A stretch of 64,000 nucleotides of DNA from Nocardioides sp. (GCF_041393715.1 NZ_JAWKJQ010000006.1:76680-140679); one strand, 5' to 3'. Shown: positions 8,321 through 53,832, counted from the stretch's first letter. Notes: a model not told the origin generated them from the sequence alone. Numbers and translations are program-made.

Positions 8321-8350
8321 GCCTCGGGCGACTTCCCCATCGCCCGAGGC
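8321..8350 (-). promoter_or_regulatory. Leader hairpin upstream of NlpC/P60 gene (11-bp stem, loop TGGGGAAG)
   Basis: GCCTCGGGCGA-TGGGGAAG-TCGCCCGAGGC on the minus strand. Confidence 0.5.
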
Positions 8351-13376: not shown

Positions 13377-13381
13377 GTCGA

Positions 13382-13466
13382 CTCCCTTCGCCGGTGCTAA
13401 CCGGATCAGGTTCGGAGGGTCTGCGGCGGTTCCGCACTCTCAGCCCGCGAGGGGCTCCCCTGTCTT
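13382..13466 (-). ncRNA. TPP riboswitch
   Basis: Minus strand GGGGAGC...GCTGAGAG...GACCCTCCGAACCTGATCCGGTTAGCACCGGCGAAGGGA directly upstream of thiB; TAGCAT -10 at 13476-13481. Confidence 0.95.
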
Positions 13467-13488
13467 GTGCCGGCCATGCTACCGGCCG

Positions 13489-13572
13489 CGTCACGGCGCA
13501 TCCCCGGCGCGCTCGCCTGCCGGTCACCGGCTGGTCACCGAATCGACCTCGCAGCGTGACTGCGCGGTCACC
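13489..13572 (+). promoter_or_regulatory. Candidate PHO box (PhoP-type 11-bp direct repeats)
   Basis: GGTCACC at 13522, 13533 and 13566, and CGTCACG at 13489; all in 11-bp phase, upstream of a secreted phosphoesterase. Confidence 0.5.
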
Positions 13573-13636
13573 CGGCGCCAGCAGACTGGCGAGCGCCCAG
13601 CCGACCCCGGCTCCGCCTCGAACCCCCGGAGGCCAT

Positions 13637-17671: not shown

Positions 17672-18226
17672 TCAGCCGAAGTGCAGCCACCCGGTGTTGA
17701 CGCCGCAGCTGAGCTTGGTGTTGACGCAGGCGTAGTCGTTGCCGTTGTAGTTGACCCCCCGCGAGCCGATCACCATCTTGGTGCTGCTGAGCTTCCAGGT
17801 CACCGTCTCCTGGACGTAGAAGTAGCCGGAGCCGACGTTCCAGGTGACGCCCTGGGGCCGGACGGTCTTGGCGTAGCCGAGGTAGGCGCTGCGGTTGACG
17901 GTGCTGATCTTGGCCCAGCTGCTGCCGGTCCAGCGGTAGAGGCGGTACTGCACCGCAACCTCCTGCGCGGCCGTTGCGCTGGACGAGCGGCCGACCGTCG
18001 GGCCGTAGACCACGAGCTGGCGCTGGTAGCAGGTGCCGACCGGGGCACAGGTGTTCACCGTCTTGCCCTGCACCTGGTAAGGCGTGATCGAGCCGGGCGT
18101 GCCGGAGGCGCCGTACAGCTGGACGGCCTGGGCGGCGGAGCCGAGGTTGGTGGCCAGGAAGGCGGCGACGACGGCGACGAGCAGGGCGAGCGAGCGACCG
18201 AGCGTGTGACGGATCTTGGTGTTCAT
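17672..18226 (-). CDS. Hypothetical secreted protein (paralog-like to 39097..39714)
   Basis: Signal peptide ending AAQA; basic, beta-rich mature region with two Cys pairs; AGGAG RBS. Confidence 0.75.
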   Translation of the reverse strand: MNTKIRHTLGRSLALLVAVVAAFLATNLGSAAQAVQLYGASGTPGSITPYQVQGKTVNTCAPVGTCYQRQLVVYGPTVGRSSSATAAQEVAVQYRLYRWTGSSWAKISTVNRSAYLGYAKTVRPQGVTWNVGSGYFYVQETVTWKLSSTKMVIGSRGVNYNGNDYACVNTKLSCGVNTGWLHFG

Positions 18227-18268: not shown

Positions 18269-18301
18269 AATCTGTCGCCCGGCGCTTAGCAACGGCTTAG
18301 C
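18269..18301 (-). promoter_or_regulatory. SARP-type operator/promoter 1
   Basis: GCTAAGC-N4-GCTAAGC-N9-CAGATT on the minus strand. Confidence 0.75.
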
Positions 18302-18349: not shown

Positions 18350-20671
18350 TCAGCCGACGACCCGCACCCGGACCCGCACCACGTCGCGGATGCCGTCGCC
18401 CACCGGGTTGTGGACGGCGTGCAGGGACCAGGTGGCGACCTGGCCGACCGTGGCCTTGGCGCCGGCCTTGACGGTCAGCCGGACGGTGCGTGAGGCGCCG
18501 GGAGCGACGTCGAGGAGGGAGTAGGTCCCGGCGGCGACCTGGGGGGTGATGGCGGTGCCTCCGGCGGTCCAGCGCCGGGTCAGCCCGGAGGTGCTCGACC
18601 TCGCCTCCGCGAGCGACCAGCGGTCGACGGCGTCCCCGTCGTTGGTGATCCGCACGGTGAAGGTCCGCTTCGCGCCGCGCTTCAGCGAGACCTGGACGGT
18701 CTGTCCGGACCCGGTGGTGTTGTAGACGTCGTCACCCAGATAGCTCCCGCTGCCGACCCGGACCTCCGCGTCCGGCCGGTAGGTCGGCGTGGGCGTCGGC
18801 GTGGGCGTCGGGGTCGGCGTCGGCGTGGGCGTCGGGGTCGGCGCGGGTCCGGGGTCCGCCGACTCGAGGGCGTCGCCCAGCGTCGTGCGGGCCCGGTCGA
18901 GGTCGGCCTGGCCGAAGGTGGTGGAGAAGGCGACGGCGTCGAGGTTGCCGCCGAGCAGGCTCAGCGCCGTGGAGCGGGCCAGCGCCGCGGTGTCGGCGTG
19001 GGCGGCGGCGAGCCGGAGGTACTCGTAGTCCTCCCGGCCGTCGCGCAGGCGCTTGAGCCGGATCGACTCGATCGGGATGTCGGTGCTGCCGCCGATGCAG
19101 CCCGGCCCGGTGCCGGGAGGGCAGGCGCGGCCGGGGTAGAACAGCGTGCCGTCGCCGTTCATGCCGGACTCGTAGAGGCAGTTGCTGCCGCCGGCGCCGC
19201 AGTCGTTCCAGGCCTGGCCGAGGCGGTAGTCGACGCCCCAGTAGAGCTCGCCGGTGGCGCCGAGGAGGAAGGCGGTCCACGGCATCGCCCGGGCCTGGGA
19301 GGCGGGCTGGTCGATGCCGTAGCCCGCCCACCCGTCGTAGAAGGGGTCGTTCCAGCCCGGGTCGCCCGGGTTGTTGCAGGCGGCCGCCTCGCAGGAGTTG
19401 TAGATCCAGACCTTGTTGGCCTGGCCGTCGCCGGTCGCGGCCGCCCAGCCGTCGTACGACGGCCGCTGGTTGCCCTGGAAGGCGCCGTTGCGGCCATCGA
19501 GCATCCGGGCCAGGACCACCATGTCGTCGACCCAGGAGTCGGCGCCGTTGGCCTTGGCGTAGGGCAGCGGGGTGGTGACCAGCTCTCGCATCCCCCGGGA
19601 CTGGGCGACGGCGTGGTGGTCCGCGCAGGCGGCCCAGTTGGCGGCGCTCTGGTTGGGCTCGTCGCAGGTGTAGTAGGAGAGGCGGTCGGCGAAGCCGTCG
19701 GCCGTGGCCTCGCTCTTCCACGCGTCGAGACAGGCGGCCTGGCAGTAGTGCCAGAGGACGAGGTTGGTGGCCTTGGCACCGGGCAGCCGGATCGGGCTCC
19801 CGACGGACGCGGGAGCGGGCGTGCCGTTGAGGATCGGCAGCACCTGCTGGCGCCAGCTGGTCCGCATCGCCCCGGACAGCGCGGCGCCCCGGTCGATCTG
19901 CCAGGGGGTGGCCAGGGTGACCCGGTTCTCCAGCGCGACCCGCTCGTAGACGGCGGAGAGCCTGTTGGCCTCGTCCACGTCGCCGTGGCAGGTCCCGGAG
20001 CCGGTGTGGACCTGGCACTGCTTGGTGGGCTCGGTCAGGAAGACGCTCTCCAGCGAGGAGGTCGACGGCAGCACCACGTTGCGCACCCTGACCGTCAGGG
20101 GGACGGTGCCGATCGTGGTGGCGCCGTCCTTGATCGTCAGGCTGCCGGTGTAGGTGTCCGGCGCCTGGTCGCGGGCGGCGAGGACGTCGACCCACAGGAC
20201 GGCGCGGCCCTGGGCGGGCACGGCCGCGCCGAACGCGGCCCGCTTCTCGCCGTAGATCGGGTCGACCTGGGGGACCAGCGCGTCGGGCCACCGCCCGACC
20301 GTGGACTCACCGTCGCTGAGGTGGTCGGCGGAGACCGCGTAGTACTGCTCCCGATATACCGTGAGCGCGCTCGCCGGGAGCGTCCCGCCGCGGGCGCCGG
20401 TCAGGTCGGAGGTCTCGACCTCGAGGCGACCGATCCCGGCGCCGTCGGCGCGGACGGCGACCTGGAAGGACTCGAACTCGTTGCGGGCGACGGTCACGTC
20501 GGCGGCCGACGGGCCGCCCGGCGTCGCGTCGTCGGCCTTGAGGGTGACCAACGGGCCGAGCACGGTGAGGCTCGACGCGGCGGCCTGCGCGGCGGTCGCC
20601 GAGACGACGGCGACCAGGGTCGCGGTGACCGAGGTGGCGAGGGCGAGAGCGGCGGCGCGGCCGAGGTGCAT
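18350..20671 (-). CDS. Secreted DUF4091/GH123-like putative glycoside hydrolase with Pro-Thr linker and C-terminal beta-rich module
   Basis: Signal peptide; ARNEFESFQV, YYTCDEP, GELYW, GDGTLFYPG, SIRLKRLRDGREDYEY; (PT)n linker. Confidence 0.72.
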   Translation of the reverse strand: MHLGRAAALALATSVTATLVAVVSATAAQAAASSLTVLGPLVTLKADDATPGGPSAADVTVARNEFESFQVAVRADGAGIGRLEVETSDLTGARGGTLPASALTVYREQYYAVSADHLSDGESTVGRWPDALVPQVDPIYGEKRAAFGAAVPAQGRAVLWVDVLAARDQAPDTYTGSLTIKDGATTIGTVPLTVRVRNVVLPSTSSLESVFLTEPTKQCQVHTGSGTCHGDVDEANRLSAVYERVALENRVTLATPWQIDRGAALSGAMRTSWRQQVLPILNGTPAPASVGSPIRLPGAKATNLVLWHYCQAACLDAWKSEATADGFADRLSYYTCDEPNQSAANWAACADHHAVAQSRGMRELVTTPLPYAKANGADSWVDDMVVLARMLDGRNGAFQGNQRPSYDGWAAATGDGQANKVWIYNSCEAAACNNPGDPGWNDPFYDGWAGYGIDQPASQARAMPWTAFLLGATGELYWGVDYRLGQAWNDCGAGGSNCLYESGMNGDGTLFYPGRACPPGTGPGCIGGSTDIPIESIRLKRLRDGREDYEYLRLAAAHADTAALARSTALSLLGGNLDAVAFSTTFGQADLDRARTTLGDALESADPGPAPTPTPTPTPTPTPTPTPTPTYRPDAEVRVGSGSYLGDDVYNTTGSGQTVQVSLKRGAKRTFTVRITNDGDAVDRWSLAEARSSTSGLTRRWTAGGTAITPQVAAGTYSLLDVAPGASRTVRLTVKAGAKATVGQVATWSLHAVHNPVGDGIRDVVRVRVRVVG

Positions 20672-20715: not shown

Positions 20716-20748
20716 AGGTTCGCGCCCGCCGCTTAGCGACGGCTTAGC
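20716..20748 (-). promoter_or_regulatory. SARP-type operator/promoter 2
   Basis: GCTAAGC-N4-GCTAAGC-N9-GAACCT on the minus strand. Confidence 0.75.
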
Positions 20749-20763: not shown

Positions 20764-22254
20764 TCAGCGGCCCACCCACCGCGAGGTGCCGGTGGTCCGC
20801 ACCACCATCAGGACGTCGGGAGCACCGGAGACGTTGGCGATGTTGCGACTGCTCCCGGCAAGACCGCGACGGTCGACGCAGGCGACCTCGCCGCTGGGCG
20901 GCCGGCCGCTGCTCGTGCACGCCTTGACGACGCGGTAGGGCTTGGACCCGGACTTGCGGAGGATCTTCACGTTCCACCAGCGCTTGCCGCCCAGGACGCT
21001 GGCGTCGAAGCGCATCCGGATCAGCGCGGGCCGCGCCGGGGTGGCCTTCAGGGAGCTCGCGTGCACCGTGAACGGGAAGCCCAGGTCGGCGCCGCTGGAG
21101 GTGGACCCGAGCTTGCGGACGACCACCCGGGCGCCGTTGGTGTCGATGGTCGGGACCCGCAGCTCGGCACTCTGCGGGAAGTCCGGTGTCGTCGACGGCA
21201 CGCACGCGGGATCGTCGGGCTGGACGCAGGCCCCGGTGCCGTACGTCGACCCGCCGGCCACCTGCGCGGCCTGCACCGGCCCGGTCGGCAGCAGCAGCGT
21301 GCCCGAGGCCACCGAGGCAGTGCCCGGGGTCGGCTGGGAGTAGCTCGCGGTGACGAGGGAGAGGCCGGTCCCGCCGCTCTTGCGGATCAGGCCCTGGTTG
21401 ACCAGCCTGCTCAGCGTCGCGATGCCGGTGTCGGCCTCGATCTTGCCCTCGAGGTAGCCGCCGTCGCCTTCGAAGCGCAGCGTGCCGGTGCCCGGGGCCG
21501 CCGTCCGATGCGGGCGGAGCGCCAGCCGGGTGCCGTGGTCGGCCGCGAGGTAGGCGCCCGCGCCGACCCGCACCAGCCCGCGGGCCACGACGACCGTCTG
21601 GTCCCCGATGTTGACGCCGCCGCCGCGGACGTCGACCACCCCACGGTCGTCGACCTCGAGGTGGAAGGTGTCGCCGGCCACCGGCGTCGGGACGGGCGAG
21701 GTGCAGGTCTCCTCGCCGGGATAGCTCACCCCCGGGGTGCTGTCGTAGGCACAGTCGCGGGTGAGCAGCGTCGCGGCGGAGCTGACGTCGTGCTCCAGGA
21801 CCAGCGTGCCCTTCACATGGAGCTTGGAGACGCCACCGAGCGTGCCGCCGACCACCTCCAGCCGGCCGTTGCTGCGCACGAGCGAGTCGGCGTCGGACGA
21901 CTGGTCGCCGTAGAGGAAGAGCTTGCCGCCCGGGTCGACGTGCACGGTGGCACCGCCGGCGATGTCGAGGGTGGTGACATGGCCCTCCTGGCCGGCGGCG
22001 ATCCGGGGCAGGCCGCCGCTGGGGATGCACACGTCCGGGTCGCCGCCGTGGAGCGGCGCACCGTCGCTCCAGTTGGCGTCGGTCTCCCAGTCGTCGGTGG
22101 TGCCCGGACCGACGCCGAGCCCCTGCCAGGTGTTGACCGTCGGCGCCAGCTGGCACAGGCCGGGCAGCGCGGACGTCGGGGCCGCCTCGGCTCCGGACAG
22201 CAGCGATCCGCCCAGCAGCAGCGTGACGACGGCAGCGGTGAGCACACGCCTCAT
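20764..22254 (-). CDS. Hypothetical secreted protein
   Basis: Signal peptide MRRVLTAAVV...AEA; W..DANWS..P...D.V.I-like N-terminus, beta-rich body, several Cys; TAGACT -10 at 22305-22310; start may be 22272. Confidence 0.72.
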   Translation of the reverse strand: MRRVLTAAVVTLLLGGSLLSGAEAAPTSALPGLCQLAPTVNTWQGLGVGPGTTDDWETDANWSDGAPLHGGDPDVCIPSGGLPRIAAGQEGHVTTLDIAGGATVHVDPGGKLFLYGDQSSDADSLVRSNGRLEVVGGTLGGVSKLHVKGTLVLEHDVSSAATLLTRDCAYDSTPGVSYPGEETCTSPVPTPVAGDTFHLEVDDRGVVDVRGGGVNIGDQTVVVARGLVRVGAGAYLAADHGTRLALRPHRTAAPGTGTLRFEGDGGYLEGKIEADTGIATLSRLVNQGLIRKSGGTGLSLVTASYSQPTPGTASVASGTLLLPTGPVQAAQVAGGSTYGTGACVQPDDPACVPSTTPDFPQSAELRVPTIDTNGARVVVRKLGSTSSGADLGFPFTVHASSLKATPARPALIRMRFDASVLGGKRWWNVKILRKSGSKPYRVVKACTSSGRPPSGEVACVDRRGLAGSSRNIANVSGAPDVLMVVRTTGTSRWVGR

Positions 22255-22332
22255 CGGCAGGACCCTTCCCATGCGCGGCCCCCCACGGGCCAAACCAGGG
22301 CGCGAGTCTAAGCCAGCCGCTAGCGTTCGGCC

Positions 22333-25266
22333 ATGGAGATCCGGCTACTCGGACCGCTCGAGGTGGCGGTCGGCGACCGGATCGTCCCGCTGGGCTCCCC
22401 CCGGCAGCGCGCCGTCTTCGCGATGCTGGCCCTGGCCGCGCCCGAGGTCGTCTCGACCGACCGGTTCGTGGACGGCCTGTGGGGGGAGGACCCGCCGGCC
22501 AACCCGACGGCCGCCCTCCAGGTGTTCGTCCACGGCCTCCGCAAGGCGCTCAAGGCCGAGGCGCTGGACGGGTTGGTGACCCGCGAGCACACGGGCTACC
22601 GCCTGTCGGTCCCGGCCGACTCGACGGACATCGGCCGGGCCTCGGCGCTCCACGACGCCGCCCGCCGGGCCCGCGACGCCGGCGACCTGGGCTCAGCCGC
22701 GGCCGCCCTCTCGGAGGCACGGTCCCTCTGGCGCGGACCGGCGCTCGCCGACGTCCGGGCCACCCCGTTCGCCGAGCCCGAGGCGGTCCGCCTCGACGAG
22801 CTGCGCCTGCTGGTGGAGGAGGACTACGTCGACGCCCAGCTGGCGCTGGGCCAGCACACCTCGCTGGTCGACCCGCTCAGCAGCGCGGTCAACGAGCACC
22901 CGATGCGTGAGCGGTTCTGGGGCCAGCTGATGACCGCGCTCTATCGCTCCGACCGCCAGGCCGACGCGCTGGCGACCTATGCCCGGGCCCGCGAGCGACT
23001 CGCCGACGAGCTCGGCATCGACCCCGGCCAGGCGCTCCAGCAGCTCGAGCTGGCGATCCTTCGCCAGGACCCCTCGATCGCCCCGCCCACGCCGGAGGCA
23101 CCCGCGGTGGTCACGCCGCGCTCCCCCAGCCGGATCCCCCGGCCGGCGACGCCGACGTTCGGCCGCGACGAGCTCGTGGCCGACGTACGCCGGCTGCTGC
23201 GGCGCGACGAGGTGCGTGTCGTGAGCCTCACCGGGCCCGGCGGGTCGGGCAAGTCCCGGCTGGCGGCGCTCGCCGCGCTGGCCGCCGAGGACGACTTCGC
23301 GGGCGGGGTCGTCCACCTCGCGCTGACCGAGCGCACCGAGGCCGACCAGGTCCTGGCCGAGCTGGCGCTCGCGCTGACCGGCGGCGACGACCTGTCCGGG
23401 CTCGACGGACTCGACCTCGATGCGCTGGTGGTGCTCGACAACCTGGAGTCGGTGGCGGCCGCGCACGACCTGGTCACCGAGCTGGTCGACCGCGCCACCG
23501 GACCGACGGTGCTGGTCACCAGCCGGTTGCCGCTGCGGATCCGCGCCGAGCACGACGTGTCGGTGCCGCCGCTCGAGGTCCCCGCACCCGGCGCCACCGA
23601 GGCCGAGGTGCTGGCGGCGCCGGCCGTGGCGATGTTCCTCGACCGGGCGCACGCGGTCGCCCCCGACACACCCCTCGACGACCGGCTCGACGACGTCGCC
23701 GACCTGTGTCGCTTCCTCGACGGGTTCCCGCTGGCCCTCGAGCTGGCGGCCGCCCAGGTGCGACTGCTCACCCCCGCCGACATCCGGGCAGCACTGGAGC
23801 GCGACCTCGGCGCCCTGCAGGCCCGCGGGGTCGACGTACCCGAACGGCAGCGGACGCTGGCCGCGACCATCGAGTGGAGCTATGACCGGCTCGACCCGCC
23901 GGCCAGACGGGTGGTCGACCGGCTGGCGCTCTTCGAGCGCAGCTTCACCCTGGAGGCGATCGAAGCCGTCTGCGACGACGTCCCCGACGTCCTGGGTGCG
24001 CTCGCCCAGGTGGTGGAGGCCCGCCTGGTGCGGCCCGCCGAGTCGCGGGTGGAGGTGCGGTTCGTCGCCCTCGGCACGGTGCGCGCCTTCGCACGGGCCC
24101 GGCTGCAGGAGCACGACGACACCGCCGACTGGGCCGCCCTGTCCGAGCACCTGCGAGACCGGGTGACCGCCTGGAGCGAGGAGATCGACGGACCGAGCGG
24201 CACCGCCGTGCTCGGCCGCTACGACGACACCGCGGCCGACCTCGACGCCGCCCTCGACCGCGCCCGCGACGAGGGCGAGCTCGACCTCGCCGTCGCGCTG
24301 GCCGAGCTCCTCACCGACTTCTGGATCGCCTCCGGCCGCCTCAGCGACGGGCTGCGGCGGGTCACCGGGCTGCTCGAGGCGACGGAGCTCACCGACACCG
24401 CGCGCGCCACGCTCCACCTGGTGGCCGGCAAGCTGGCCTACCACCTCACCGACTGGGGTCGCACCGCCGAGGAGTGCCGGGCGGCCATCGCACTGACCGA
24501 GGACCCCCGGCTGCTCGCCGACGCCCGCTGTCATCTGGGGGCGGCCCTGGTGGTGACCGGCGACCCGGAGCAGGGGACCGCCCTCGCGCAGGAGGCGCTG
24601 AGCGCCGCCGAGGCCCTGGGGGACTACCGGATCACCGTGGTCGCCCTGTCGATGCTGGCCATCGGATGTGCCGTGCGCGGCGACCTGGCCGGGGAGCGTG
24701 GCTACTACGAACGGCGACTCGCCGTGGTCGGCGACCGCGGCGACGCCGCGCGCCTGGCCGACACCCTCAACACCCTCGCCGAGATCGCCCTCGACGACGG
24801 CGACGCCGCCACGGCCCGGGCCTATGCCTCGGAGTCGGTGGGCATCGCCGGCACCGCGCTGCCGCTGGAGCGTCGGGACGCGACGATCAGCCTGGCGCGG
24901 GCGGCGGCCGTCGAGTCCGATCCCGTCGAGCTCGCCGAGCATCTGCGGGTGGCGACCGAGCTGTCGGACCGCACCGGCCAGGCGCTGGCGGTCGCGCAGT
25001 GCCTGCGGGTCGGCGGCTGCCTGGCGGTCCTCAGCGACGAGCAGCCGCTCGCCGTCCGCGCGTTCGCCGCGGCGCAGCGCCTGTCGCCCTCGCCGTCCGG
25101 CACCGACGAACCCCTCGAGACCGACCTCGCGGCCCGCCTCGCGCAGGCACGGGCGGCCGTCGGGGAACATGCCGCCCGGGAGTGGACGCTGGGCGCCACC
25201 CTCCCGCTCCGGTCGACCCGAGACGGCATCGACGCCCTCGTGGCCCGGACACTAAGCGGCCACTAA
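22333..25266 (+). CDS. AfsR/SARP-family regulator 1 (winged HTH + BTAD + NB-ARC-type ATPase + TPR)
   Basis: IRLLGPLEV, HPMRERFWGQLMTALYRSDRQADAL, GPGGSGKS, LVVLDNLE, LDGFPLALELAAA; TAGCGT -10 6 nt before ATG. Confidence 0.92.
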   Translation: MEIRLLGPLEVAVGDRIVPLGSPRQRAVFAMLALAAPEVVSTDRFVDGLWGEDPPANPTAALQVFVHGLRKALKAEALDGLVTREHTGYRLSVPADSTDIGRASALHDAARRARDAGDLGSAAAALSEARSLWRGPALADVRATPFAEPEAVRLDELRLLVEEDYVDAQLALGQHTSLVDPLSSAVNEHPMRERFWGQLMTALYRSDRQADALATYARARERLADELGIDPGQALQQLELAILRQDPSIAPPTPEAPAVVTPRSPSRIPRPATPTFGRDELVADVRRLLRRDEVRVVSLTGPGGSGKSRLAALAALAAEDDFAGGVVHLALTERTEADQVLAELALALTGGDDLSGLDGLDLDALVVLDNLESVAAAHDLVTELVDRATGPTVLVTSRLPLRIRAEHDVSVPPLEVPAPGATEAEVLAAPAVAMFLDRAHAVAPDTPLDDRLDDVADLCRFLDGFPLALELAAAQVRLLTPADIRAALERDLGALQARGVDVPERQRTLAATIEWSYDRLDPPARRVVDRLALFERSFTLEAIEAVCDDVPDVLGALAQVVEARLVRPAESRVEVRFVALGTVRAFARARLQEHDDTADWAALSEHLRDRVTAWSEEIDGPSGTAVLGRYDDTAADLDAALDRARDEGELDLAVALAELLTDFWIASGRLSDGLRRVTGLLEATELTDTARATLHLVAGKLAYHLTDWGRTAEECRAAIALTEDPRLLADARCHLGAALVVTGDPEQGTALAQEALSAAEALGDYRITVVALSMLAIGCAVRGDLAGERGYYERRLAVVGDRGDAARLADTLNTLAEIALDDGDAATARAYASESVGIAGTALPLERRDATISLARAAAVESDPVELAEHLRVATELSDRTGQALAVAQCLRVGGCLAVLSDEQPLAVRAFAAAQRLSPSPSGTDEPLETDLAARLAQARAAVGEHAAREWTLGATLPLRSTRDGIDALVARTLSGH

Positions 25267-25283
25267 GCCTGGTCACCCAGGCT
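25251..25283 (+). promoter_or_regulatory. SARP-type operator/promoter 3, overlapping the regulator stop codon
   Basis: ACTAAGC-N4-ACTAAGC-N9-CAGGCT; TAA stop 25264-25266 lies inside repeat 2. Confidence 0.75.
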
Positions 25284-25324
25284 CTCCTCACCGGGCCCGC
25301 CGGGCCCCACCCCGAGGAGAGCTC

Positions 25325-26791
25325 ATGAGCACGCCCGCCCCCCTTCGCCTGTCCGCGGCCGCGGCCGGACTCGTCTGCGCCGCCCTGCTCGGCACCGCCG
25401 GCGCGTCGCACGCCGACGGCGCCGGCCCGGCGCCGCAGCGCACCCAGGGAGCCGCACAGGCGGGTGCGAAGGCCGCTGCCGCCGAGTCGCCGACCGGTCG
25501 GGCTGCGGCGTTCGACCAGGTGACCCGCCTGGCCCGGCGACACGGCACCGTGACGGTGACGATCATCCTCGCCGAGGCTCCGACCCGGGCGCCCGACGCC
25601 GGGGTGCGCTCCCGGCTCACCGACCAGGCGTCCGCCGGACGGGCGGCCGCACTCCGGGCGCTGGACGGACCCACCGGCACCAGCAGCGTCCCCGGCGCCC
25701 CGGCGATGACGGCCACGGTCGACGCCGCCGACCTGGCCGCTCTGCGCCGCGAGCCGGCCGTGCTGTCCATCGCCCGCAACATCGACTTCCGGGCCGCCGG
25801 CACCACGACCTTCGGCATCCAGGACGGCGTGCAGCTGCCCCGGTGGTGGCACCTGAAGAAGATGGGCCTCGACTGGACCTACGCCCACGGCTACAACGGC
25901 GCCGGCCAGCGGATCGTGGTGGTCGACAGCGGCGTCGACTACACCCACCCCTGGCTGCAGGGCCACGTCGTCGACGGCGCCTGCTTCTCCTCCGACGGCT
26001 GCGGGAACGGACTGTTCTACGCCTACGGCATCCAGGCCGGGAAGAACTGCACCTACGCCGTCAGCTGCGCCCACGGCACCCACGTCGCCCAGACCGCGGC
26101 CGGCAAGTACGGCGCCGCGCGCTCGGCCGGCATCGTCGCGATCAACGCCAGCCACCGCAGCGCCAGCGGCCGGCCCACCTACGGCACCGCCGACCTGATC
26201 AACGCCCTGTGGTACTCCTACTACTACGTCAGCCCGGCCCCGGCCGCCGTCAACCTGAGCATCGGCGGCAGCACGACCTACGCCACCACCTGCGACAGCA
26301 CGAACCAGCCGCTCGCCGACTGGATCACCGCGCTGCGCAGCCGCGGGACGGCCACGGTGATCGCCGCCGGCAACAGCAACTCCTCGACCGGGGTGAGCTA
26401 CCCCGCCTGCATGAGCCGCGCGGTCGTGGTCGGCAACGCGACGCTCACCAGCGCCACCGGGAGGCCCGCGGTGCTCGGCGGCCGGGCCGGGGCCTCCAAC
26501 AGCAACCGGCTGGTCGACCTGTGGGCGCCCGGCACCGACATCTGCTCGGCCGTCCCGACGAGCCTCGACGTCGACGGGACGCGTGACGGGGCCGACTGCA
26601 GCTGGTACGGCACCTCGATGGCCGCTCCCCAGGTCAGCGGCGCGTTCGCGGTGCTGAAGGCGGCACGGCCGTCGTACTCGGTGAACCAGAGCCTCTCGGC
26701 CTTCGTCCGCAACGGCCTGGCGATCACCGACTCCCGCAACGGCGTCACCCGATCGATGGTCAACGTCGCCAACGCGGTGTACTACGGCTGA
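25325..26791 (+). CDS. Secreted subtilisin-like serine protease (S8)
   Basis: Signal and pro-region; catalytic triad VVDSG, HGTHVA, GTSMAAP; oxyanion AAGN. Confidence 0.92.
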   Translation: MSTPAPLRLSAAAAGLVCAALLGTAGASHADGAGPAPQRTQGAAQAGAKAAAAESPTGRAAAFDQVTRLARRHGTVTVTIILAEAPTRAPDAGVRSRLTDQASAGRAAALRALDGPTGTSSVPGAPAMTATVDAADLAALRREPAVLSIARNIDFRAAGTTTFGIQDGVQLPRWWHLKKMGLDWTYAHGYNGAGQRIVVVDSGVDYTHPWLQGHVVDGACFSSDGCGNGLFYAYGIQAGKNCTYAVSCAHGTHVAQTAAGKYGAARSAGIVAINASHRSASGRPTYGTADLINALWYSYYYVSPAPAAVNLSIGGSTTYATTCDSTNQPLADWITALRSRGTATVIAAGNSNSSTGVSYPACMSRAVVVGNATLTSATGRPAVLGGRAGASNSNRLVDLWAPGTDICSAVPTSLDVDGTRDGADCSWYGTSMAAPQVSGAFAVLKAARPSYSVNQSLSAFVRNGLAITDSRNGVTRSMVNVANAVYYG

Positions 26792-26858: not shown

Positions 26859-27809
26859 GTGGTGGGTGGCTACGTCGTCGCGACCGGTGGCATCGCGCTG
26901 GACCTGAAGGCCAGGGCCAACGCCGCGCTGGTGCGCGGCAGCAGCAACCGCGGCCGGCTGACCCGATGCCCGGGTGGGGTGGCCCGCAACATCGCCGAGA
27001 ACCTCGCCCGGCTGGGCACCCCGGTGCACCTGGTGGGTGCCGTCGGCGACGACCCCCTCGGGGCGGAGCTGGTCGAGCAGACCCGGGCAGCGGGGGTGAC
27101 CGTGGTCCCGGTCGGCCAGCGGGAGCTGACCGGCACCTACACCGCGATGCTCGACGAGAACGGCGAGCTGGTCGCCGGGGTCGCCGACCTGTCCGCGACC
27201 GAGGGACTGGCTCCCGACGACCTGGCCGTGATGCTGCCGTTGGTGGCCGGCGCCGCGCTCCTGGTCGCCGATGCCAACCTGCCGGTGTCGTTCCTGCACA
27301 ACCTGGTGGTTCGAGCGCGCGACGCCCGGGTCCCGGTGGTGCTGGACCCGGTGAGCGTGCCCAAGGCCGACCGGGTCTCGGCGGTGCTCGACCCGCGGCA
27401 CCCGGTGCTGCTGGTGAGCCCCAACCGCGACGAGCTCGGCGCGCTGACCGGGCACTCCACCGGGTCACGCTCGGAGCTGGTCGGCGCGGCGCGACGGCTG
27501 TGCGCGATGGGCGCCGAGAACGTCTGGGTGCGGCTCGGCGCCGACGGGTCGCTGCTGGTGCCGCGGGCCGACGAGCCGGTGCCCCTCGGCGCCCACAAGG
27601 TGACGGTCGTCGACGTCACCGGTGGCGGCGACGCGATGCTGGCGGGGCTGATCCACCGATGGCTGCTCGGCGACCCGCTGGCCGAGGCCGCGGCCTACGG
27701 ACAGGCGGTCGCGGCGCTGACCGTCGCGCGCGAGGAGACGGTGCGGCCCGACCTCGGGCCCGACCTGGTCGAGGCCCAGCTGGCCAGGCCCGTCGGGCGG
27801 TGGCGATGA
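26859..27809 (+). CDS. psuK: PfkB-family kinase, probably pseudouridine kinase
   Basis: GGVARNIAENLARLG, SPNRDEL, DVTGGGD; coupled to psuG; TAGGGT -10 7 nt before GTG. Confidence 0.8.
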   Translation: MVGGYVVATGGIALDLKARANAALVRGSSNRGRLTRCPGGVARNIAENLARLGTPVHLVGAVGDDPLGAELVEQTRAAGVTVVPVGQRELTGTYTAMLDENGELVAGVADLSATEGLAPDDLAVMLPLVAGAALLVADANLPVSFLHNLVVRARDARVPVVLDPVSVPKADRVSAVLDPRHPVLLVSPNRDELGALTGHSTGSRSELVGAARRLCAMGAENVWVRLGADGSLLVPRADEPVPLGAHKVTVVDVTGGGDAMLAGLIHRWLLGDPLAEAAAYGQAVAALTVAREETVRPDLGPDLVEAQLARPVGRWR

Positions 27810-28729
27810 GTGCCGCCGGCCTGCCCGTCGACGTCACCGCCGAGGTGGCCGACGCCTTGGCCGACGGCCGCCCGGTGGTGGCGCTGGAGAGCACGATCAT
27901 CAGCCACGGGATGCCCTACCCCCAGAACGTCGCGATGGCGGTCGAGGTCGAAGGCATCGTCCGCGACGCCGGCGCGGTGCCCGCGACCATCGCGGTGCTC
28001 GACGGGCGTCCCCTGGTCGGGCTGGACCGCGACCAGCTGGAGGTGCTCGCCTCCGACGGCTCGGTGGCCAAGGCCAGCGTGCGCGACCTGCCCGTGTTGG
28101 CGGCGCAACGACGACACGGCGCCACCACGGTCGCCGCGACGATGCGGCTGGCGGCGCTGGCCGGCATCCGGGTCTTCGTGACCGGCGGCCTGGGCGGCGT
28201 GCACCGCGGGGCGCAGCAGAGCTTCGACATCTCCGCCGACCTCACCGAGCTGGCCCGCACCCCCGTCGCCGTGGTGTGCGCGGGGGTGAAGTCGATCCTC
28301 GACATCGGGCTCACCCTCGAGGCGCTGGAGACCCTCGGCGTGCCGGTGCTGGGGGTCGGCACCGAGGAGTTCCCGTCGTTCTACTCCCGCACCAGCGGCT
28401 TCCGCGCTCCCACCCGCGTCGACGGCGCCGACGAGATCGCCCGGGTGATGCGCGCCCAGTGGGCCCTCGGGCTGCCCGGCGGCCTGGTGGTCGCCAACCC
28501 GATCCCGCCCGCCGACGAGATCCCCGCGGAGGAGATCGGCGGCGTGATCGAGGAGGCGTTGGCCGACCTCGACCGGCTGGGGATCGGCGGCCAGGCCGCG
28601 ACGCCGTACCTCCTGGGACGCATCGTCGAGCTCACCGGTGGGGGCAGCCTGACCGCCAACATCGCGCTGGTGAGGAACAACGCCCGGCTCGGCGCCGCCG
28701 TGGCCGCGGCCTACGCCGAGCGGCGATAG
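27806..28729 (+). CDS. psuG: Pseudouridine-5'-phosphate glycosidase
   Basis: VALESTIISHGMPYPQN, GATTVAATM, TGGLGGVHRG, DISADL, GVKSILD. Confidence 0.95.
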   Translation: MSAAGLPVDVTAEVADALADGRPVVALESTIISHGMPYPQNVAMAVEVEGIVRDAGAVPATIAVLDGRPLVGLDRDQLEVLASDGSVAKASVRDLPVLAAQRRHGATTVAATMRLAALAGIRVFVTGGLGGVHRGAQQSFDISADLTELARTPVAVVCAGVKSILDIGLTLEALETLGVPVLGVGTEEFPSFYSRTSGFRAPTRVDGADEIARVMRAQWALGLPGGLVVANPIPPADEIPAEEIGGVIEEALADLDRLGIGGQAATPYLLGRIVELTGGGSLTANIALVRNNARLGAAVAAAYAERR

Positions 28730-39015: not shown

Positions 39016-39048
39016 GCTAAGCCGGCGCTAAGAGGTGGGCTCGATGGT
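39016..39048 (+). promoter_or_regulatory. SARP-type operator/promoter 4
   Basis: GCTAAGC-N4-GCTAAGA-N9-GATGGT. Confidence 0.72.
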
Positions 39049-39096: not shown

Positions 39097-39714
39097 ATGA
39101 ACACCACCGCCGGCACCGCAGCCGCCGTCCTCGCAACCACCCGGACCCACCGGGCCGCCGCCGCCCGGATCATCGCCGTGTTCGCGGCCGTGGTGTCGTC
39201 GCTGCTGATGACGCTGTTCGCCGCGACCCCGGCCGAGGCAGCCACCACCGTCGGCGCCGCCGGGCGGATCGGCAGCATCACCCTCAACGGGCCGATGATC
39301 AACGGCTACGACGTCGGCCAGCGGCTGGCGAACGGCACCTACTTCTACTCCAAGAACTGGAACGTCGGCGGCTTCACCGTCACCCGGAGCCCCTCGTCGT
39401 ACCGGCAGCGGGTCACGGGGAAGTCGACGATCCAGAAGTGGAACGGAGCCCGGTGGGTCGACATCCAGTCACGCACCTGGTCGGGCACCGTGGCCGGCAC
39501 CGGCACCCTCCGCTTCCCCGGGTGGACCTACTCGCCGACCAACGTCCCCAACAACCGCGCGTCGTACCGCGTGAACTTCCTGATCACCTGGACCAACACC
39601 GCCAACGGCCAGTTGGTCGCCCTCACCGGCGTGCTGCCCAACAAGTACTCCGACAACCGCTGCGCGACCACGTTCTTCACCTGCCGGACCTACACCGACG
39701 GCATCAACTTCTGA
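39097..39714 (+). CDS. Hypothetical secreted protein (paralog-like to 17672..18226)
   Basis: Signal peptide ending AEA; KWNGARW segment, C-terminal Cys pair; AAGGAG RBS. Confidence 0.78.
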   Translation: MNTTAGTAAAVLATTRTHRAAAARIIAVFAAVVSSLLMTLFAATPAEAATTVGAAGRIGSITLNGPMINGYDVGQRLANGTYFYSKNWNVGGFTVTRSPSSYRQRVTGKSTIQKWNGARWVDIQSRTWSGTVAGTGTLRFPGWTYSPTNVPNNRASYRVNFLITWTNTANGQLVALTGVLPNKYSDNRCATTFFTCRTYTDGINF

Positions 39715-50782: not shown

Positions 50783-51006
50783 GGACGTCCCTTGCTCGTG
50801 CGGTTCACCGGTTCGGTCCGAGGCGGGCTCCGAGACGAGCCCCGGTCGAGATCCGGGTGGGCGACGGGGCCCACGGCGGAACACGGTAGCGCGAACGTCC
50901 GCGGAGTCCAGCGCGGTGGTCGGTCGGCGGTGGTCGCGAAGGCCCCGGCGCCCACCTGGAGAACGGGGTGCGTCCGGGCGGCTGCGACGTGGGTAGGTTC
51001 GGCTCG

Positions 51007-53832
51007 ATGGCACCTGCGTCCTCCGCTCCAGAGACGCGGGCCGAGGTAAGGCTCCTCGGCCCGTTCGAGGTGCGCGTGGGCGGCCGGCCGGTGACCGTGA
51101 GCGCCGCCCAGCAGCGGGTGGTGCTCGCCGCGCTCGCCCTCCGGGTCGGCGAGCCCGTGACGACCGACACGCTGTGCGACGCGCTGTGGCCCGAGCAGGT
51201 CCCCAGCACCGCCCGCACCTCGCTGCACAACACGATCCGGCGACTGCGGCTGTTGCTTGCCGACGCGGGAGCGGGCGAGCCCCTCCGCACCGGACCCGAC
51301 GGCTATCGGCTCGACCTGCCCGACGGCGCCGTCGACGCCGTGGCGTTCACCAACGGCGTGACCCGGGCTCGCAGGCTGGCGGCCGGGGGCGACGAGGCCG
51401 CCGCGCGGTCGGCGTACGACGAGGCGCTGGGGTGGTGGCGCGGTGAGCCGATGCAGGCACTGGTCGGCGCCGGCTGGCTCGCCGGCCCGGCCGAGCAGCT
51501 GACCGAGCTGCGGCTGACCGCGACCGAGGAGTGGTCCGACCTGGAACGCGCCGCCGGTCGTCCCGAGCGCGCCCTCGAGCGGCTGGCTCCCCTGGCCGAG
51601 GCGCAGCCGCTGCGCGAGGGACTGCGGGCCCGGCTGATGCTGGCCATGCAGGCGGCCGGACGGACGGCGGACGCGCTGGCCCACTACGGCGCCGCGCGGC
51701 GACTGCTGGTCGAGGAGCTGGGCGTGGAGCCCGGCCCCGCCCTGCGCGCTGCCCACGCCGAGGTGCTCCGGCTCGATGAGGAGGCCAGCACGGCCGACAC
51801 CGCCGCACCACTGGTGGCCCCCGCCCAGCTGCCCGCGACCGGCACCTCGGTCGTCGGCCGTGACGACGAGCTCGCCCTGCTCGACGGGGCGCTGCCCGAG
51901 CCCACCGAGCGCCCCGTCGTCTGCGTCGTCTCCGGGGCCGCCGGCGTGGGCAAGACCACGTTGGCGGCGCGGTGGGCGCACCGCACGGCGAGCGCGTTCC
52001 CCGACGGCCAGCTGTGGGTCGACCTGCGTGGGTTCGACGCCCAGGGCCGGCCGCTGACACCGGGGCAGGTGCTGGAGCGCTTCCTGACCGCCTTCGGTGT
52101 GGCCGCCGACGACCTGCCGGTCGACCCCGACGCGGCGGCCGACCTCTACCGGAGCCTGATCGCCGACCGGCGGATGCTGGTGGTGCTCGACAACGCCCGC
52201 GACGCGGCGCAGGTGCGCCCGCTGCTGCCGACGGGCCCGGGCAGCCTGGCCCTGGTCACCAGCCGCCACGACCTGAGCTCGCTGGCCGTCACCCAGGGCG
52301 CCCGGCTGGTCTCCCTGGACGTGCTGCCCGACGGCCCCGCCGAACGCCTGCTGGCCGAGCGGCTCGGCGTGGCTCGGCTGCGGGCCGAGCCGGCCGCCGT
52401 ACCCGAGATCCTGGCGCGCTGCGGCGGCCTGCCGTTGGCGCTGGCCCTGGTCGCCGGGCGGGCGGCGGCGCAGCCCCGGCTACCGCTGCTCACCCTGGCC
52501 GAGCAGCTGCGCGACTCCTCCCTGGACGTGCTCGGCCTGGGCGACCCGGCGACCGACCTGCGGGCCGTGCTGTCCTGGTCGCTCGACGCGCTGACGCCCG
52601 ACACCGCGCGGGCCTTCGCGCTGCTCGGCGTGCACCCCGGTCCCGAGGTGGACGCGGCCGCGCTGGCGAGCCTGGCCGAGGTGCCGGTCCGCCAGGCCCG
52701 CACGACACTGGACGAGCTGGTCCGCGCCCACCTCGCCGTGCCGCGTGGCCCGCACCGCGTCGCCATGCACGACCTGGTGCGCGACCACGCCCGCGAGCTG
52801 GCTCGCGGCCTGCTGACCGCGGACGAGCGCGTCGACCTGGTCCGCCGGCTGGCCGACCACTACCTGCGGTCGGCGTATGCCGCGACCCGGACGCTGTTCA
52901 CCACGCCGTTGCCGTTCGCGCTCGACCCACCCGTGCCGGGCGTCGTCACCGAGACCTTCGCCGACCCCGAGCACGGCACGGCCTGGCTGCAGGCCGAGCT
53001 GCCCGCCCTGGCCCGCGTGCTGGAGGCCGCCGCCGAGGTGCCCGGGCTGGCGGACTACCCGTGGCGGATGGCCCGCGCGGTGAGTGGCTACCTGTGGGAC
53101 CGCTGCGCCTGGGCCGACATCGCGCACCTGCACGGGCTCGCCCTGCGGGCCAGCCTCCGCGCGAGCGACCGAGTCGGGGAGGCCGATGCCCGTCACGGCC
53201 TCGGCGACGCGTACGCCGGCCTCGGACGGTTCGACGAGGCCGGCGCCGAGCTGGCGCGGTCGCTCGATCTCTACGCCGCCATCGGCGACGTCATGGGTGA
53301 GAGCGATGTGCGCTGCACCATGGGCCGGATGCTCGAGCTGGCCGGCGACGCCGAGGGCTCGATCCACCACACCGGCCTCGCGCTGGAGCTCTACCGGCAG
53401 ATCGGCGACCGCAGCGGCGAGGCGGTCGCGCTCAACAACATCGGCTGGATGCACTCCACCCTCGGCGACTTCGAGCCCGCGCTGGCCAGCTGCACGGCCG
53501 CGCTCGACCTCTACCGCGCCGACGGCGACCACGCCGGGGTCGCCTACGCCCTGGACAGCATGGGCCGTGCCTACCTCGGGCTCGGCGACCTGGCCCGGGC
53601 CATCGAGTGCTACGCGGAGGCCGCCGACAGCGCTCGGGCGATCGGCCAGCACTTCAACCGGGCCGCCAACCTCACCCACCTGGGCGACGCCCGGCACGCG
53701 AACGGGGAGCCCGAGGCGGCCCGCGTCGCCTGGCGGGATGCGCTCGTCCTCCTCGAGGAGATCGGGCACCCCCGGGCGGAGTCGCTCCGGTCCCGGCTGG
53801 CGCTGCTCGGCGCCGGGACCGCCTCGCGTTAG
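51007..53832 (+). CDS. AfsR/SARP-family regulator 2 (winged HTH + BTAD + NB-ARC + TPR)
   Basis: VRLLGPFEV, QPLREGLRARLMLAM, GAAGVGKT, LVVLDNA, CGGLPLAL, TPR repeats; TAGGTT 7 nt before ATG. Confidence 0.93.
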   Translation: MAPASSAPETRAEVRLLGPFEVRVGGRPVTVSAAQQRVVLAALALRVGEPVTTDTLCDALWPEQVPSTARTSLHNTIRRLRLLLADAGAGEPLRTGPDGYRLDLPDGAVDAVAFTNGVTRARRLAAGGDEAAARSAYDEALGWWRGEPMQALVGAGWLAGPAEQLTELRLTATEEWSDLERAAGRPERALERLAPLAEAQPLREGLRARLMLAMQAAGRTADALAHYGAARRLLVEELGVEPGPALRAAHAEVLRLDEEASTADTAAPLVAPAQLPATGTSVVGRDDELALLDGALPEPTERPVVCVVSGAAGVGKTTLAARWAHRTASAFPDGQLWVDLRGFDAQGRPLTPGQVLERFLTAFGVAADDLPVDPDAAADLYRSLIADRRMLVVLDNARDAAQVRPLLPTGPGSLALVTSRHDLSSLAVTQGARLVSLDVLPDGPAERLLAERLGVARLRAEPAAVPEILARCGGLPLALALVAGRAAAQPRLPLLTLAEQLRDSSLDVLGLGDPATDLRAVLSWSLDALTPDTARAFALLGVHPGPEVDAAALASLAEVPVRQARTTLDELVRAHLAVPRGPHRVAMHDLVRDHARELARGLLTADERVDLVRRLADHYLRSAYAATRTLFTTPLPFALDPPVPGVVTETFADPEHGTAWLQAELPALARVLEAAAEVPGLADYPWRMARAVSGYLWDRCAWADIAHLHGLALRASLRASDRVGEADARHGLGDAYAGLGRFDEAGAELARSLDLYAAIGDVMGESDVRCTMGRMLELAGDAEGSIHHTGLALELYRQIGDRSGEAVALNNIGWMHSTLGDFEPALASCTAALDLYRADGDHAGVAYALDSMGRAYLGLGDLARAIECYAEAADSARAIGQHFNRAANLTHLGDARHANGEPEAARVAWRDALVLLEEIGHPRAESLRSRLALLGAGTASR

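Follow-up and report, generated by a model that had tools for sequence, protein, structure and literature searches.

Overlap of a large SARP regulator's stop codon with the predicted SARP box of an adjacent secreted protease gene in Nocardioides sp.

The SARP1 gene and the adjacent subtilase gene

The window, that is, the whole stretch of 64,000 nucleotides that was analysed (NZ_JAWKJQ010000006.1:76680-140679, positions counted from its first letter), contains a gene for a large SARP regulator, called SARP1 here, which is followed in the same direction by a gene for a secreted protease. The following features lie along these two genes:

22321..22326, plus strand: predicted -10 hexamer TAGCGT of SARP1's own promoter, 6 nt before the ATG
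22333..25266, plus strand: SARP1, a 977-aa regulator of the large SARP type, with an OmpR-type DNA-binding domain and BTAD, a putative P-loop NOD and a putative TPR-like C-terminus
25251..25257, plus strand: repeat 1, ACTAAGC, within the coding sequence (codons aCA CTA AGC, Thr-Leu-Ser); 8-bp core 25250-25257, which corresponds to -40..-33 relative to the predicted transcription start
25262..25268, plus strand: repeat 2, ACTAAGC, containing the TAA stop (25264-25266); its 8-bp core, 25261-25268, is at -29..-22
25278..25283, plus strand: predicted -10 hexamer CAGGCT, 9 nt past repeat 2
25289..25290, plus strand: predicted transcription start CA (A = 25290), placed by the conserved CA
25293..25307, plus strand: 5'-leader hairpin GGGCCC-gcc-GGGCCC, found in most sites and in predicted folds
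25314-25319, plus strand: ribosome-binding site GAGGAG, 3' of the leader hairpin and before the S8 ATG
25325..26791, plus strand: secreted S8 subtilase of 488 aa (Pfam Peptidase_S8, signal peptide, Asp/His/Ser triad motifs)

The SARP1 open reading frame has a GC3 of 0.95. Its product matches the entire BTAD model (Pfam, 154 bits, 4.5e-45, residues 98-243) and Trans_reg_C, the OmpR-type winged-helix DNA-binding domain (35 bits for a cut-off of 26.2, 1.5e-8, residues 22-91). Matches to AAA_16 (24.3 bits, cut-off 32.6) and TPR_MalT (23 bits, cut-off 45) remain under the Pfam cut-offs; a Walker A motif, GPGGSGKS, is present, and TPR_12, TPR_MalT and HTH_77 matches are precomputed for the SARP1 orthologs. 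Full-length AfsR (PDB 8k60/8jke) aligns with residues 5-836, NOD included, and the SARP domain itself matches EmbR (E 5e-50; 2fez, the best PDB match) and AfsR (E 8e-43). An assignment as AfsR ortholog was rejected on the NCBIfam equivalog NF053617 (197 bits, with a cut-off of 1430); judged from these alignments, SARP1 is a paralog with AfsR-type architecture, not AfsR. A TAnnnT hexamer lies 6-7 nt 5' of the regulator ATG in all nine orthologous loci examined, and such a short distance at SARP1 implies, if the predicted start is right, a leaderless mRNA. The subtilase is recognised by Peptidase_S8 (Pfam, 89.6 bits, 2.9e-25); the motifs DSGVD, HGTHVA and GTSMAAP are present, its N-terminus has a signal-like segment, and subtilisins were matched in the PDB.

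The SARP1 coding sequence ends CGG ACA CTA AGC GGC CAC TAA, followed by gcc, and CACTAAGC occurs at 25250-25257 and again at 25261-25268, a period of 11 bp. The initial annotation had described this arrangement correctly: ACTAAGC is present twice, the second copy includes the TAA stop, and the ATG of the S8 gene (25325) follows after a gap of 58 nt. Both elements are unusual in the window: only 4 of its 12,616 codons are CTA (0.32 per 1000), one of them being the Leu codon of repeat 1, and the SARP1 stop is the sole TAA among 25 genes. Exact 8-mers recurring at an offset of 11 are, per se, not rare (9 window positions, for 4.5 +/- 3 in Markov simulations). The paired motif [CT]TAAG[CA]-N5-[CT]TAAG[CA], on the other hand, is far beyond chance, with four pairs in the window and none in 100 simulations. 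Between 25000 and 25500, neither a sigma-70 -35/-10 consensus nor an intrinsic terminator was found.

Geometry of the box family and its predicted targets

The box was analysed in 26 distinct sites from 13 loci, which are partly orthologous and so do not represent independent events. A weight matrix trained on 21 sites, all from other genomes, picked exactly four sites in the window (32-48 bits, the next best scoring -0.8). All four are oriented towards a gene whose start codon lies 56-63 nt further on, behind a good ribosome-binding site. Apart from the box at the SARP1 stop codon, the window sites and the genes around them are:

20731..20748, minus strand: second SARP1-type box, GCTAAGC-cgtc-GCTAAGC (48.1 bits), with -10 GAACCT at 20721-20716, before the 773-aa gene (ATG 20671)
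18350..20671, minus strand: predicted target, a secreted 773-aa glycosidase-like protein (PDB 8k2f, E 9.6e-24; weak GH123 Pfam matches)
18284..18301, minus strand: third SARP1-type box, GCTAAGC-cgtt-GCTAAGC (47.6 bits), with -10 CAGATT at 18274-18269, before the 184-aa gene (ATG 18226)
17672..18226, minus strand: predicted target, a 184-aa secreted beta-sandwich protein of a clade-restricted family
39016..39033, plus strand: fourth SARP1-type box, GCTAAGC-cggc-GCTAAGA (33.5 bits), with -10 GATGGT at 39043-39048
39097..39714, plus strand: predicted target of the fourth box, a 205-aa paralog of the 184-aa protein
20764..22254, minus strand: 496-aa secreted protein, a divergent neighbour of SARP1 without a box of its own, with conserved synteny

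The structure matched by the 773-aa protein, 8k2f, is that of an oligosaccharide-releasing beta-N-acetylgalactosaminidase.

Two heptamers in 11-bp phase are present at each of the 26 sites, the four of the window included, and in all 26 an sAnnnT -10 hexamer begins 9 nt 3' of GCTAAGC. Position +10 is always C or G, +11 always A and +15 always T; the bases from +2 to +9 vary freely, and the predicted start CA is kept as C at +21 in 25 sites and A at +22 in 24. G occupies +1 in 22 of the 26 sites, so that the heptamer may equally be read CTAAGCG, which makes the distance from box to -10 8 nt. As published for SARPs, the direct repeats have a period of 11 bp, and 8 bp separate the 3' one from the -10; in the afs box, which reaches from -40 to -19, contacts are made to the first 8 bp of both repeats (PMC10936776; PMC10972967). 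With the fixed spacing seen here, the 8-bp cores come to lie at -40..-33 and -29..-22, in agreement with the published AfsR/afs-box geometry. That the same arrangement holds at 26 sites in 13 loci agrees with the earlier proposal that the repeats form the operator of the protease promoter, in this case a predicted SARP box. In addition, the boxes cluster round the SARP1 orthologs in every locus.

The reading that we consider probable is that the ACTAAGC pair is the SARP box of an activator-dependent promoter of the S8 protease gene, its overlap with the stop codon being a by-product of compaction. A dimer of SARP domains would bind both adjacent 8-bp cores on one face of the helix, the most likely binder being SARP1, which is encoded directly upstream. 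The dimer would replace the absent -35 element and bring RNA polymerase to the weak -10 CAGGCT, with a start predicted at 25290; AfsR at afsS provides a structurally shown precedent for this step. SARP1 would also drive at least three further promoters in the window, those of the beta-HexNAc-ase-like glycosidase and of the two small secreted beta-sandwich proteins, and the four together would make up a small regulon for secreted proteins. SARP1 activity is presumably gated by its putative P-loop NOD and TPR parts.

Conservation and loss of the overlap

Intact repeats at the 3' end of the regulator gene are found in eight loci (the window, L002, L004, L005, L038, L052, L053 and L055), each with a co-directional gene about 55-63 nt away, and are decayed or absent in five loci without such a gene (L054, L061, L062, L001 and L003). 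The Leu codon of repeat 1 is CTA or TTA in all six loci that use this repeat and CTG or CTC in all four that do not; similarly, the regulator stop is TAA where the repeats are used but TGA where no downstream target is left. Rare codons and a TAA stop that are exchanged for common ones upon loss of the target support selection at the DNA level within the coding sequence. Six loci have the stop codon in repeat 2, whereas L055 and L005 have it in repeat 1. The stop-in-repeat state of the SARP1 clade may go back to a single ancestral event followed by one register shift.

The initial annotation had also suggested that homologous regulators be compared for stop codons lying inside repeats. This was borne out in the close orthologs, and likewise in a second, independent and paralogous regulator-protease pair of the window, which has another heptamer:

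50968..53832, plus strand: SARP2, a large SARP (BTAD, NB-ARC, TPR) with 34% identity to SARP1 over the N-terminal 436 residues
53827..53844, plus strand: SARP2-type box, CGTTAGC-gcgg-CGTTAGC, with the TAG stop (53830-53832) in repeat 1 and a predicted -10, CAGGTT, at 53855-53860
53977..55701, plus strand: membrane-anchored trypsin-like protease (S1, HtrA-like), the constant 3' neighbour of SARP2 orthologs

The NB-ARC domain of SARP2 passes the Pfam threshold (40 bits). Its box is kept in L056-L059 and L063. The window, L058 and L059 have the stop in repeat 1, L057 has it in repeat 2, and in L056 and L063 it lies 14-19 nt upstream. This cassette was found in at least four genomic contexts. The neighbours that are conserved next to SARP1 are the divergent 496-aa, 773-aa and 184-aa genes, and what varies is the gene 3' of its orthologs (an S8 protease, a small secreted protein, or none). 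The description of the first cassette as a portable unit is therefore not supported, and portability fits the SARP2 cassette better.

An adaptive design, in which the operator was placed in the regulator's last codons because it couples the two genes, appears improbable to us. It could take the form of a lock against loss, or of a roadblock in which bound SARP or RNA polymerase gives rise to non-stop regulator transcripts and hence to negative autoregulation. About ten lineages of the SARP1 clade do retain the overlap, which also recurs in the SARP2 family; moreover, in L004 a 300-nt module that runs from the 3' end of the SARP gene through the promoter to nt 30 of the target gene has been duplicated in one piece. 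However, the proposal that any loss of the operator must change the 3' end of the regulator is not supported in view of L054 and L061, where the box has decayed by point changes (CTA to CTC or CTG, AGC to ACC or GGC, TAA to TGA) and the regulator has kept its length, with a single residue altered in the non-conserved tail. Two losses, each at the cost of one residue, indicate that the overlap is not a lock. The free exchange of the downstream gene argues in the same direction, and so does the position of the stop, which differs among orthologs between either repeat and the sequence upstream.

Compaction would account for the overlap. The heptamer includes TAA, and two copies 11 bp apart shut two of the three reading frames; an open reading frame that abuts the box will end in it because the last 5-10 residues are unconstrained and stops are otherwise scarce at 75% G+C. 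Large SARPs with stop-free heptamers have their box shortly 3' of the stop (+19 in L014, +70 in L024). We conclude from these comparisons that the overlap is probably a side effect of a heptamer that contains a stop and of a short tail that drifts, with no lock between regulator and target. The feature is real and conserved, yet seems to be formed by an ordinary SARP promoter pressed against a gene and to require no new mechanism. The selection that it places on coding-sequence DNA, visible in the rare CTA/TTA and the TAA stop, is nevertheless real, and the survival of the overlap in some ten lineages could reflect some further benefit.

A further reading, which we regard as doubtful, is that the promoter module also insulates translation, so that only SARP-initiated mRNAs would be translatable. 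At the promoters of the S8 protease and 773-aa genes, which are those directly behind a co-directional open reading frame, the bases between -10 and start (CTCCTC and CCTTC, reaching into the -10) can pair over 6-9 bp with the ribosome-binding site of the gene itself. Being 5' of the predicted start, they would be present solely in read-through transcripts from the upstream gene. If true, insulation would keep a secreted protease from leaky expression even though its operator sits in the upstream gene, and the L004 duplicate, with the regulator's 3' end, the box, the leader and the beginning of the signal peptide, would be an expression cassette that is complete in itself and can be copied.

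Other regulators and related systems

It is quite unlikely that the repeats are bound by another regulator, such as a response regulator of the OmpR/PhoB family, and that the adjacent SARP gene is a coincidence. OmpR-family proteins have the same winged-helix fold and likewise bind direct repeats of some 11 bp, and AfsR and PhoP reportedly share the afsS promoter region. On the other side, the SARP1 and SARP2 families differ in the heptamer found at the 3' end of the regulator gene, the boxes move with the SARP gene among genomic contexts, no regulator besides the SARP is conserved in these loci, and the box-to--10 distance is that of AfsR. Least probable of all is expression of the protease mainly by read-through of a two-gene operon, with the repeats as an RNA or translational element or as chance: some read-through is likely across a terminator-free gap of only 58 nt, but the same box, -10 and CA module at 39016 precedes a gene without a co-directional upstream neighbour, the invariant A and T of the -10 at a fixed distance have no RNA-level rationale, the read-through RNA is predicted to sequester the ribosome-binding site in five of nine sites, and the repeats decay once the downstream gene is lost.

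The closest known system is AfsR at afsS in Streptomyces coelicolor. SARP1 resembles it in (i) its domains, an OmpR-type DNA-binding domain and BTAD followed by putative NOD and TPR parts in the same order, and (ii) its box, made of two direct repeats spaced by 11 bp with equally placed cores, a weak -10 and no usable -35. Unlike the AfsR system, the SARP1 heptamer GCTAAGC is an odd palindrome containing TAA, the predicted targets are secreted hydrolases and small secreted proteins rather than afsS, the host is a Nocardioidaceae bacterium and the box overlaps the regulator's own stop.

Cluster-situated SARPs (ActII-ORF4, DnrI, RedD and the large PolY and RslR3) use heptamer direct repeats with 4-nt spacers over the -35 region, and the regulator adjoins its targets (PMC10972967). 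The SARP1 system is similar in its heptamers, its 4-nt spacers and the position of the regulator gene next to its predicted targets; however, these regulators have TCGAGC-type heptamers and belong to antibiotic biosynthetic clusters, whereas domain annotation and synteny of the loci compared revealed no biosynthetic genes adjoining SARP1. As their heptamers lack a stop triplet, they cannot give rise to a stop-codon overlap by this route.

EmbR of Mycobacterium tuberculosis, which belongs to the SARP family and regulates cell-envelope genes, is, as noted above, the best PDB sequence match to the SARP domain of SARP1 and a precedent for SARP-family action outside secondary metabolism. It has an FHA domain where SARP1 has its putative NOD and TPR parts, and to our knowledge it shows no comparable box or stop-codon overlap. 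More generally, promoters and regulator sites inside the 3' end of an upstream gene are a common bacterial phenomenon in which, as at SARP1, the same bases are both coding and regulatory; at SARP1 the double function shows in a rare CTA/TTA codon and a rare TAA stop, both of which revert to common codons when the target is lost.

The 3' end of the SARP1 gene

The ORF 22333..25266 (+ strand), which lies in a window of ~74% G+C, has a GC3 of 0.95, and its G+C distribution over codon positions is that of a real gene. Its product, SARP1, is a probable SARP-STAND regulator of 977 aa with Trans_reg_C and BTAD domains and weaker AAA_16 and TPR_MalT matches, and full-length AfsR structures align with its residues 5-836. 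Its relatives assign the window to the Nocardioidaceae, and run searches detected it in DNA metagenomes only, from activated sludge and wastewater. The last codons of the gene are CGG ACA CTA AGC GGC CAC TAA: CACTAAGC occurs twice (25250-25257 and 25261-25268) with a period of 11 bp, the stop codon (25264-25266) falls within the second copy, and the start codon of an S8 subtilase gene follows 58 nt past the stop, at 25325. The initial annotation had described the repeat codons, the TAA inside repeat 2 and the 58-nt gap, and was right in each element. Between the SARP1 and S8 genes, neither a -35/-10 consensus promoter (consensus scan) nor an intrinsic terminator was found, and the leaders matched no known RNA family in Rfam.

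Exact 8-mers repeated at an offset of 11 are not rare in the window (9 positions vs 4.5 +/- 3 in simulated sequence). Pairs of [CT]TAAG[CA] at 11-bp spacing, however, occur four times in the window and never in 100 simulated windows, and seven of the eight CTAAGC hexamers of the window fall within these four pairs. The pairs other than that of SARP1 are as follows.

SARP1-type boxes elsewhere in the window
20748-20731, - strand: paired [CT]TAAG[CA], oriented to the gene
18301-18284, - strand: paired [CT]TAAG[CA], oriented to the gene
39016-39033, + strand: paired [CT]TAAG[CA], oriented to the gene

All three face their gene from 57-63 nt 5' of a start codon that has a strong ribosome-binding site. 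The four window boxes score 32-48 bits with a weight matrix whose training set was 21 sites, all of them from other genomes; the next best score is -0.8 (128 kb, both strands).

The anatomy of the site was derived from 26 distinct sites in 13 loci. Besides the window, these were five loci from genomes, one from a metagenome and six on contigs retrieved by protein identity.

Conserved positions, numbered relative to the final base of repeat 2
+1: G (22/26 sites)
+2 to +9: variable
+10: C or G (26/26 sites)
+11: A (26/26 sites)
+15: T (26/26 sites)
+21: C (25/26 sites)
+22: A (24/26 sites)

Judged from these alignments, positions +10 to +15 are a predicted -10 hexamer, sAnnnT, with the two critical positions kept and a constant spacing to the box, and a pyrimidine-purine transcription start is predicted 7 nt past it. 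With +22 taken as this start, the two 8-bp cores occupy -40..-33 and -29..-22. In SARP promoters, which have a suboptimal -10 and a poor -35, direct repeats are spaced by 11 or 22 bp, with 8 bp between the 3' repeat and the -10 (PMC10936776); according to the AfsR cryo-EM paper, the afs box extends from -40 to -19, with contacts to bp 1-8 of each 11-bp repeat (PMC10936776). The predicted geometry of the sites is an exact match to these rules.

SARP1 itself appears to have a leaderless promoter: a TAnnnT hexamer lies 6-7 nt 5' of the ATG in all nine orthologs examined. In the window (22307-22332) the hexamer is TAGCGT, at a distance of 6 nt. About 7-9 nt 5' of this -10 stands a lone half-site, TCTAAGC; TAAGC is found at the matching place in two orthologous loci (L052, L053) and is absent from six other orthologs. 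This half-site may provide weak autoregulation.

Orthologs, downstream genes and codon choice

Close SARP1 orthologs (>=69% identity) typically end in L-S-x-x-stop, encoded as CTA AGC nnn nnC TAA. Recurrence of the stop codon inside repeats of 11-bp period, proposed earlier as a check on homologs, is thus found among them. The orthologous loci, designated by L numbers, differ in what follows the regulator.

State of the repeats in SARP1 orthologs
Intact repeats, stop in repeat 2: window, L002, L052, L053, L038, L004; co-directional gene 54-59 nt on
Box displaced downstream by one period, with the stop in repeat 1: L055, L005; old repeat 1 now CTGGAC / CTGAGC
Repeats decayed or absent: L054, L061, L062, L001, L003; no adjacent co-directional target

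In the last group, the 3' end reads gtGCTCACCggcccCTGACT in L054 and acGCTGGGCgccCGCTGAGA in L061, and L062 carries a deletion that reaches into the protease gene. Only the 3' end of L005 was used; its ORF meets an early stop when read from the start codon, suggesting a frameshift or faulty assembly. L038 was the only informative locus from a metagenome scan queried with the C-terminal alignment, which otherwise returned mostly a more distant clade (<=64% identity) without the repeats. In L052, from the cultured Nocardioides marmoribigeumensis, the box is intact but the S8 protease behind it is split by the gene call into two ORFs of 242 and 235 aa (13006-14463), and is probably frameshifted or a pseudogene.

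The comparison of codons across loci amounts to a natural experiment. Where repeat 1 is in use, the Leu codon is CTA (four loci) or TTA (two loci) and the stop is TAA; where it is unused, the homologous Leu codon is CTG or CTC (four loci), and L054, L061 and L001 have TGA. These codons are scarce in the 25 window genes: CTA accounts for 4 of 12,616 codons, two of the four being in SARP1, TTA occurs once, and TAA serves as stop once, in SARP1, vs 21 TGA. The tail of the SARP1 orthologs also differs in length and sequence. The codon and stop pattern therefore points to the box, rather than codon preference or protein function, as what determines the last codons, and the repeats would serve the downstream gene, acting as DNA. 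This is a clean natural case of regulatory constraint on coding DNA: an activator box holds a rare codon and a rare stop, both of which relax after loss of the target. Gene annotation and analyses that rest on codon use should allow for SARP boxes within the final codons of regulators.

Putative binders and the predicted regulon

We infer that SARP1 binds the GCTAAGC boxes because their geometry is SARP-specific, beyond that of a mere direct repeat. In every orthologous locus the boxes are grouped around the SARP1 gene, in a conserved layout, [~180 aa]<-[~790 aa]<-[~500 aa]<- / ->SARP1, in which they precede the 790-aa and 180-aa genes. The second large SARP of the window, SARP2 (50968..53832), is 34% identical to SARP1 over the N-terminal 436 residues, and its 3' end carries another heptamer pair, CGTTAGC-N4-CGTTAGC, ahead of a trypsin-like protease gene. 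Heptamer pair and gene pair are both kept in another five loci, in several different genomic contexts and at identities as low as 49%. Since two regulator families each have their own box beside their own gene, the adjacent SARP is the parsimonious candidate binder.

In the SARP2 cassette (window 50968-55701), the gene ends in TCG CGT TAG, so that CGTTAGC-gcgg-CGTTAGC spans the TAG stop; the downstream gene encodes a trypsin/HtrA-like protease with a membrane anchor. Just 3' of the box lies an inverted repeat, GCCAGGT...ACCTGGC (~53853-53875), which is kept in orthologs as '...TACCTGGC'. A C-terminal 'R*' signature seemed widespread among SARP2 relatives; it is unreliable at 45% identity, because a relative at that distance, Plantactinospora L060, has neither repeats nor protease.

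A secreted protease, a protein resembling glycosidases and a family of small secreted proteins make up the predicted regulon. The S8 subtilase has an intact triad and a signal peptide. The 773-aa secreted protein (18350-20671, - strand) has no Pfam match above cut-off, but is related to the oligosaccharide-releasing beta-N-acetylgalactosaminidases 8k2f (E 1e-23) and 8k2h. The small secreted proteins of 184 aa (17672-18226, - strand) and 205 aa (39097-39714, + strand) are paralogs, each behind a SARP1-type box, from a family with only 26 database members, all unnamed; the AF2 model (pLDDT 80) is a beta-sandwich with no meaningful PDB match (TM <= 0.37). No box precedes the gene of the divergent 496-aa secreted protein, for which NCBIfam and PDB searches gave no family matches.

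At the S8 and 773-aa genes, whose boxes come right after a co-directional ORF, the segment between the -10 and the predicted start would pair with the ribosome-binding site. The predicted unpaired probability of this site is 0.00-0.07 in read-through RNA and 0.3-0.8 in RNA from the predicted start. The pairing effect appeared in five of nine folded sites, and was absent at the 184-aa gene, the 205-aa gene, L052 and L055. Start-dependent exposure of the ribosome-binding site as an extra regulatory layer is improbable, because the pyrimidine-rich discriminator alone may account for the pairing.

Our literature search, whose coverage was incomplete, returned nothing on protease control by SARPs and no SARP box over a stop codon, which is absence of evidence only. 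The regulatory principle is already known, and nothing here is new in principle: SARP1 would work in the manner of AfsR at afsS, whose architecture it appears to share. However, SARP1 scores 197 bits as an AfsR equivalog, against a cut-off of 1430, and its heptamers, host family and targets (secreted hydrolases, not antibiotic genes) are new. SARPs outside Streptomyces and antibiotic clusters are a poorly studied group (PMC10972967). SARP1 and its paralog SARP2, two uncharacterised large SARPs of this kind, here gain candidate recognition heptamers, GCTAAGC and CGTTAGC, respectively, and the 40-nt matrix offers a means of locating the regulon in genomes of the Nocardioidaceae.

Overlap of box and stop codon

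GCTAAGC contains TAA and CGTTAGC contains TAG, so two heptamers 11 bp apart place stops in two of three frames, in DNA where other stops are scarce. The register of the stop drifts: among SARP1 orthologs it lies in repeat 2 in six loci and in repeat 1 in L055 and L005, and among SARP2 orthologs, the window, L058 and L059 have it in repeat 1, L057 has it in repeat 2, and L056 and L063 have it 14-19 nt upstream. In distant large SARPs with stop-free heptamers, the boxes stand just past the stop (L014, L024). In addition, the box was lost twice from SARP1 orthologs with one residue changed in the tail. The drifting stop, the stop-free boxes beyond the stop and the box losses therefore favor a by-product: the overlap would follow from a promoter packed tightly against a gene whose product has a C-terminal tail free of constraint. 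The initial annotation had held the operator to be inseparable from the regulator's 3' end; the two losses, at the cost of a single tail residue, argue against such a lock. Its notion of a portable unit, put forward for cassette 1, is not supported there: the gene after the regulator varies (S8 protease, small secreted protein or none). Portability fits the SARP2 cassette (cassette 2) better, where the pair moves together.

In L004, a 300-nt direct duplication (6747-7046 and 8096-8395; 95% identity, spacing 1349 nt) runs from the last ~210 nt of the regulator through box and leader into the first 30 nt of the target. From the predicted promoters, a small secreted protein of 234 aa would be expressed behind one copy and the S8 protease behind the other; the second copy, ahead of the protease, holds a dead regulator-gene fragment. 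At sequence level, this duplication shows how such modules could spread.

Other repeats were seen near large SARP genes. In L014 (7240-7280), GTCAACG occurs twice in 11-bp phase at +19 from the stop; the gene that follows encodes a Tat-secreted protein of 492 aa and appears to be leaderless. In L024 (~3020-3060), CGCTCACAC occurs three times in 11-bp phase at +70 from the stop, before another SARP gene. In L010 (Nonomuraea zeae, ~7145-7215), ~5 tandem copies of the 13-nt unit CCTACTGCGCTGA start in the last codons of the large SARP ORF and take in its TGA stop; with a period of 13 rather than 11, this array was ruled out as a classical SARP box.

The window also contains the following features.

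13366-13471, - strand: TPP riboswitch (Rfam RF00059, 65 bits)
40927-40999, - strand: tRNA gene (Rfam RF00005, 73 bits)
26859..27809: PfkB-family kinase ORF
26966..28729: ORF overlapping the former, with an Indigoidine_A-like domain (pseudouridine-5'-phosphate glycosidase type) in its C-terminal half

The last two probably form a kinase/glycosidase gene pair (26859-28729), the second start being mis-set in the mechanical ORF list.
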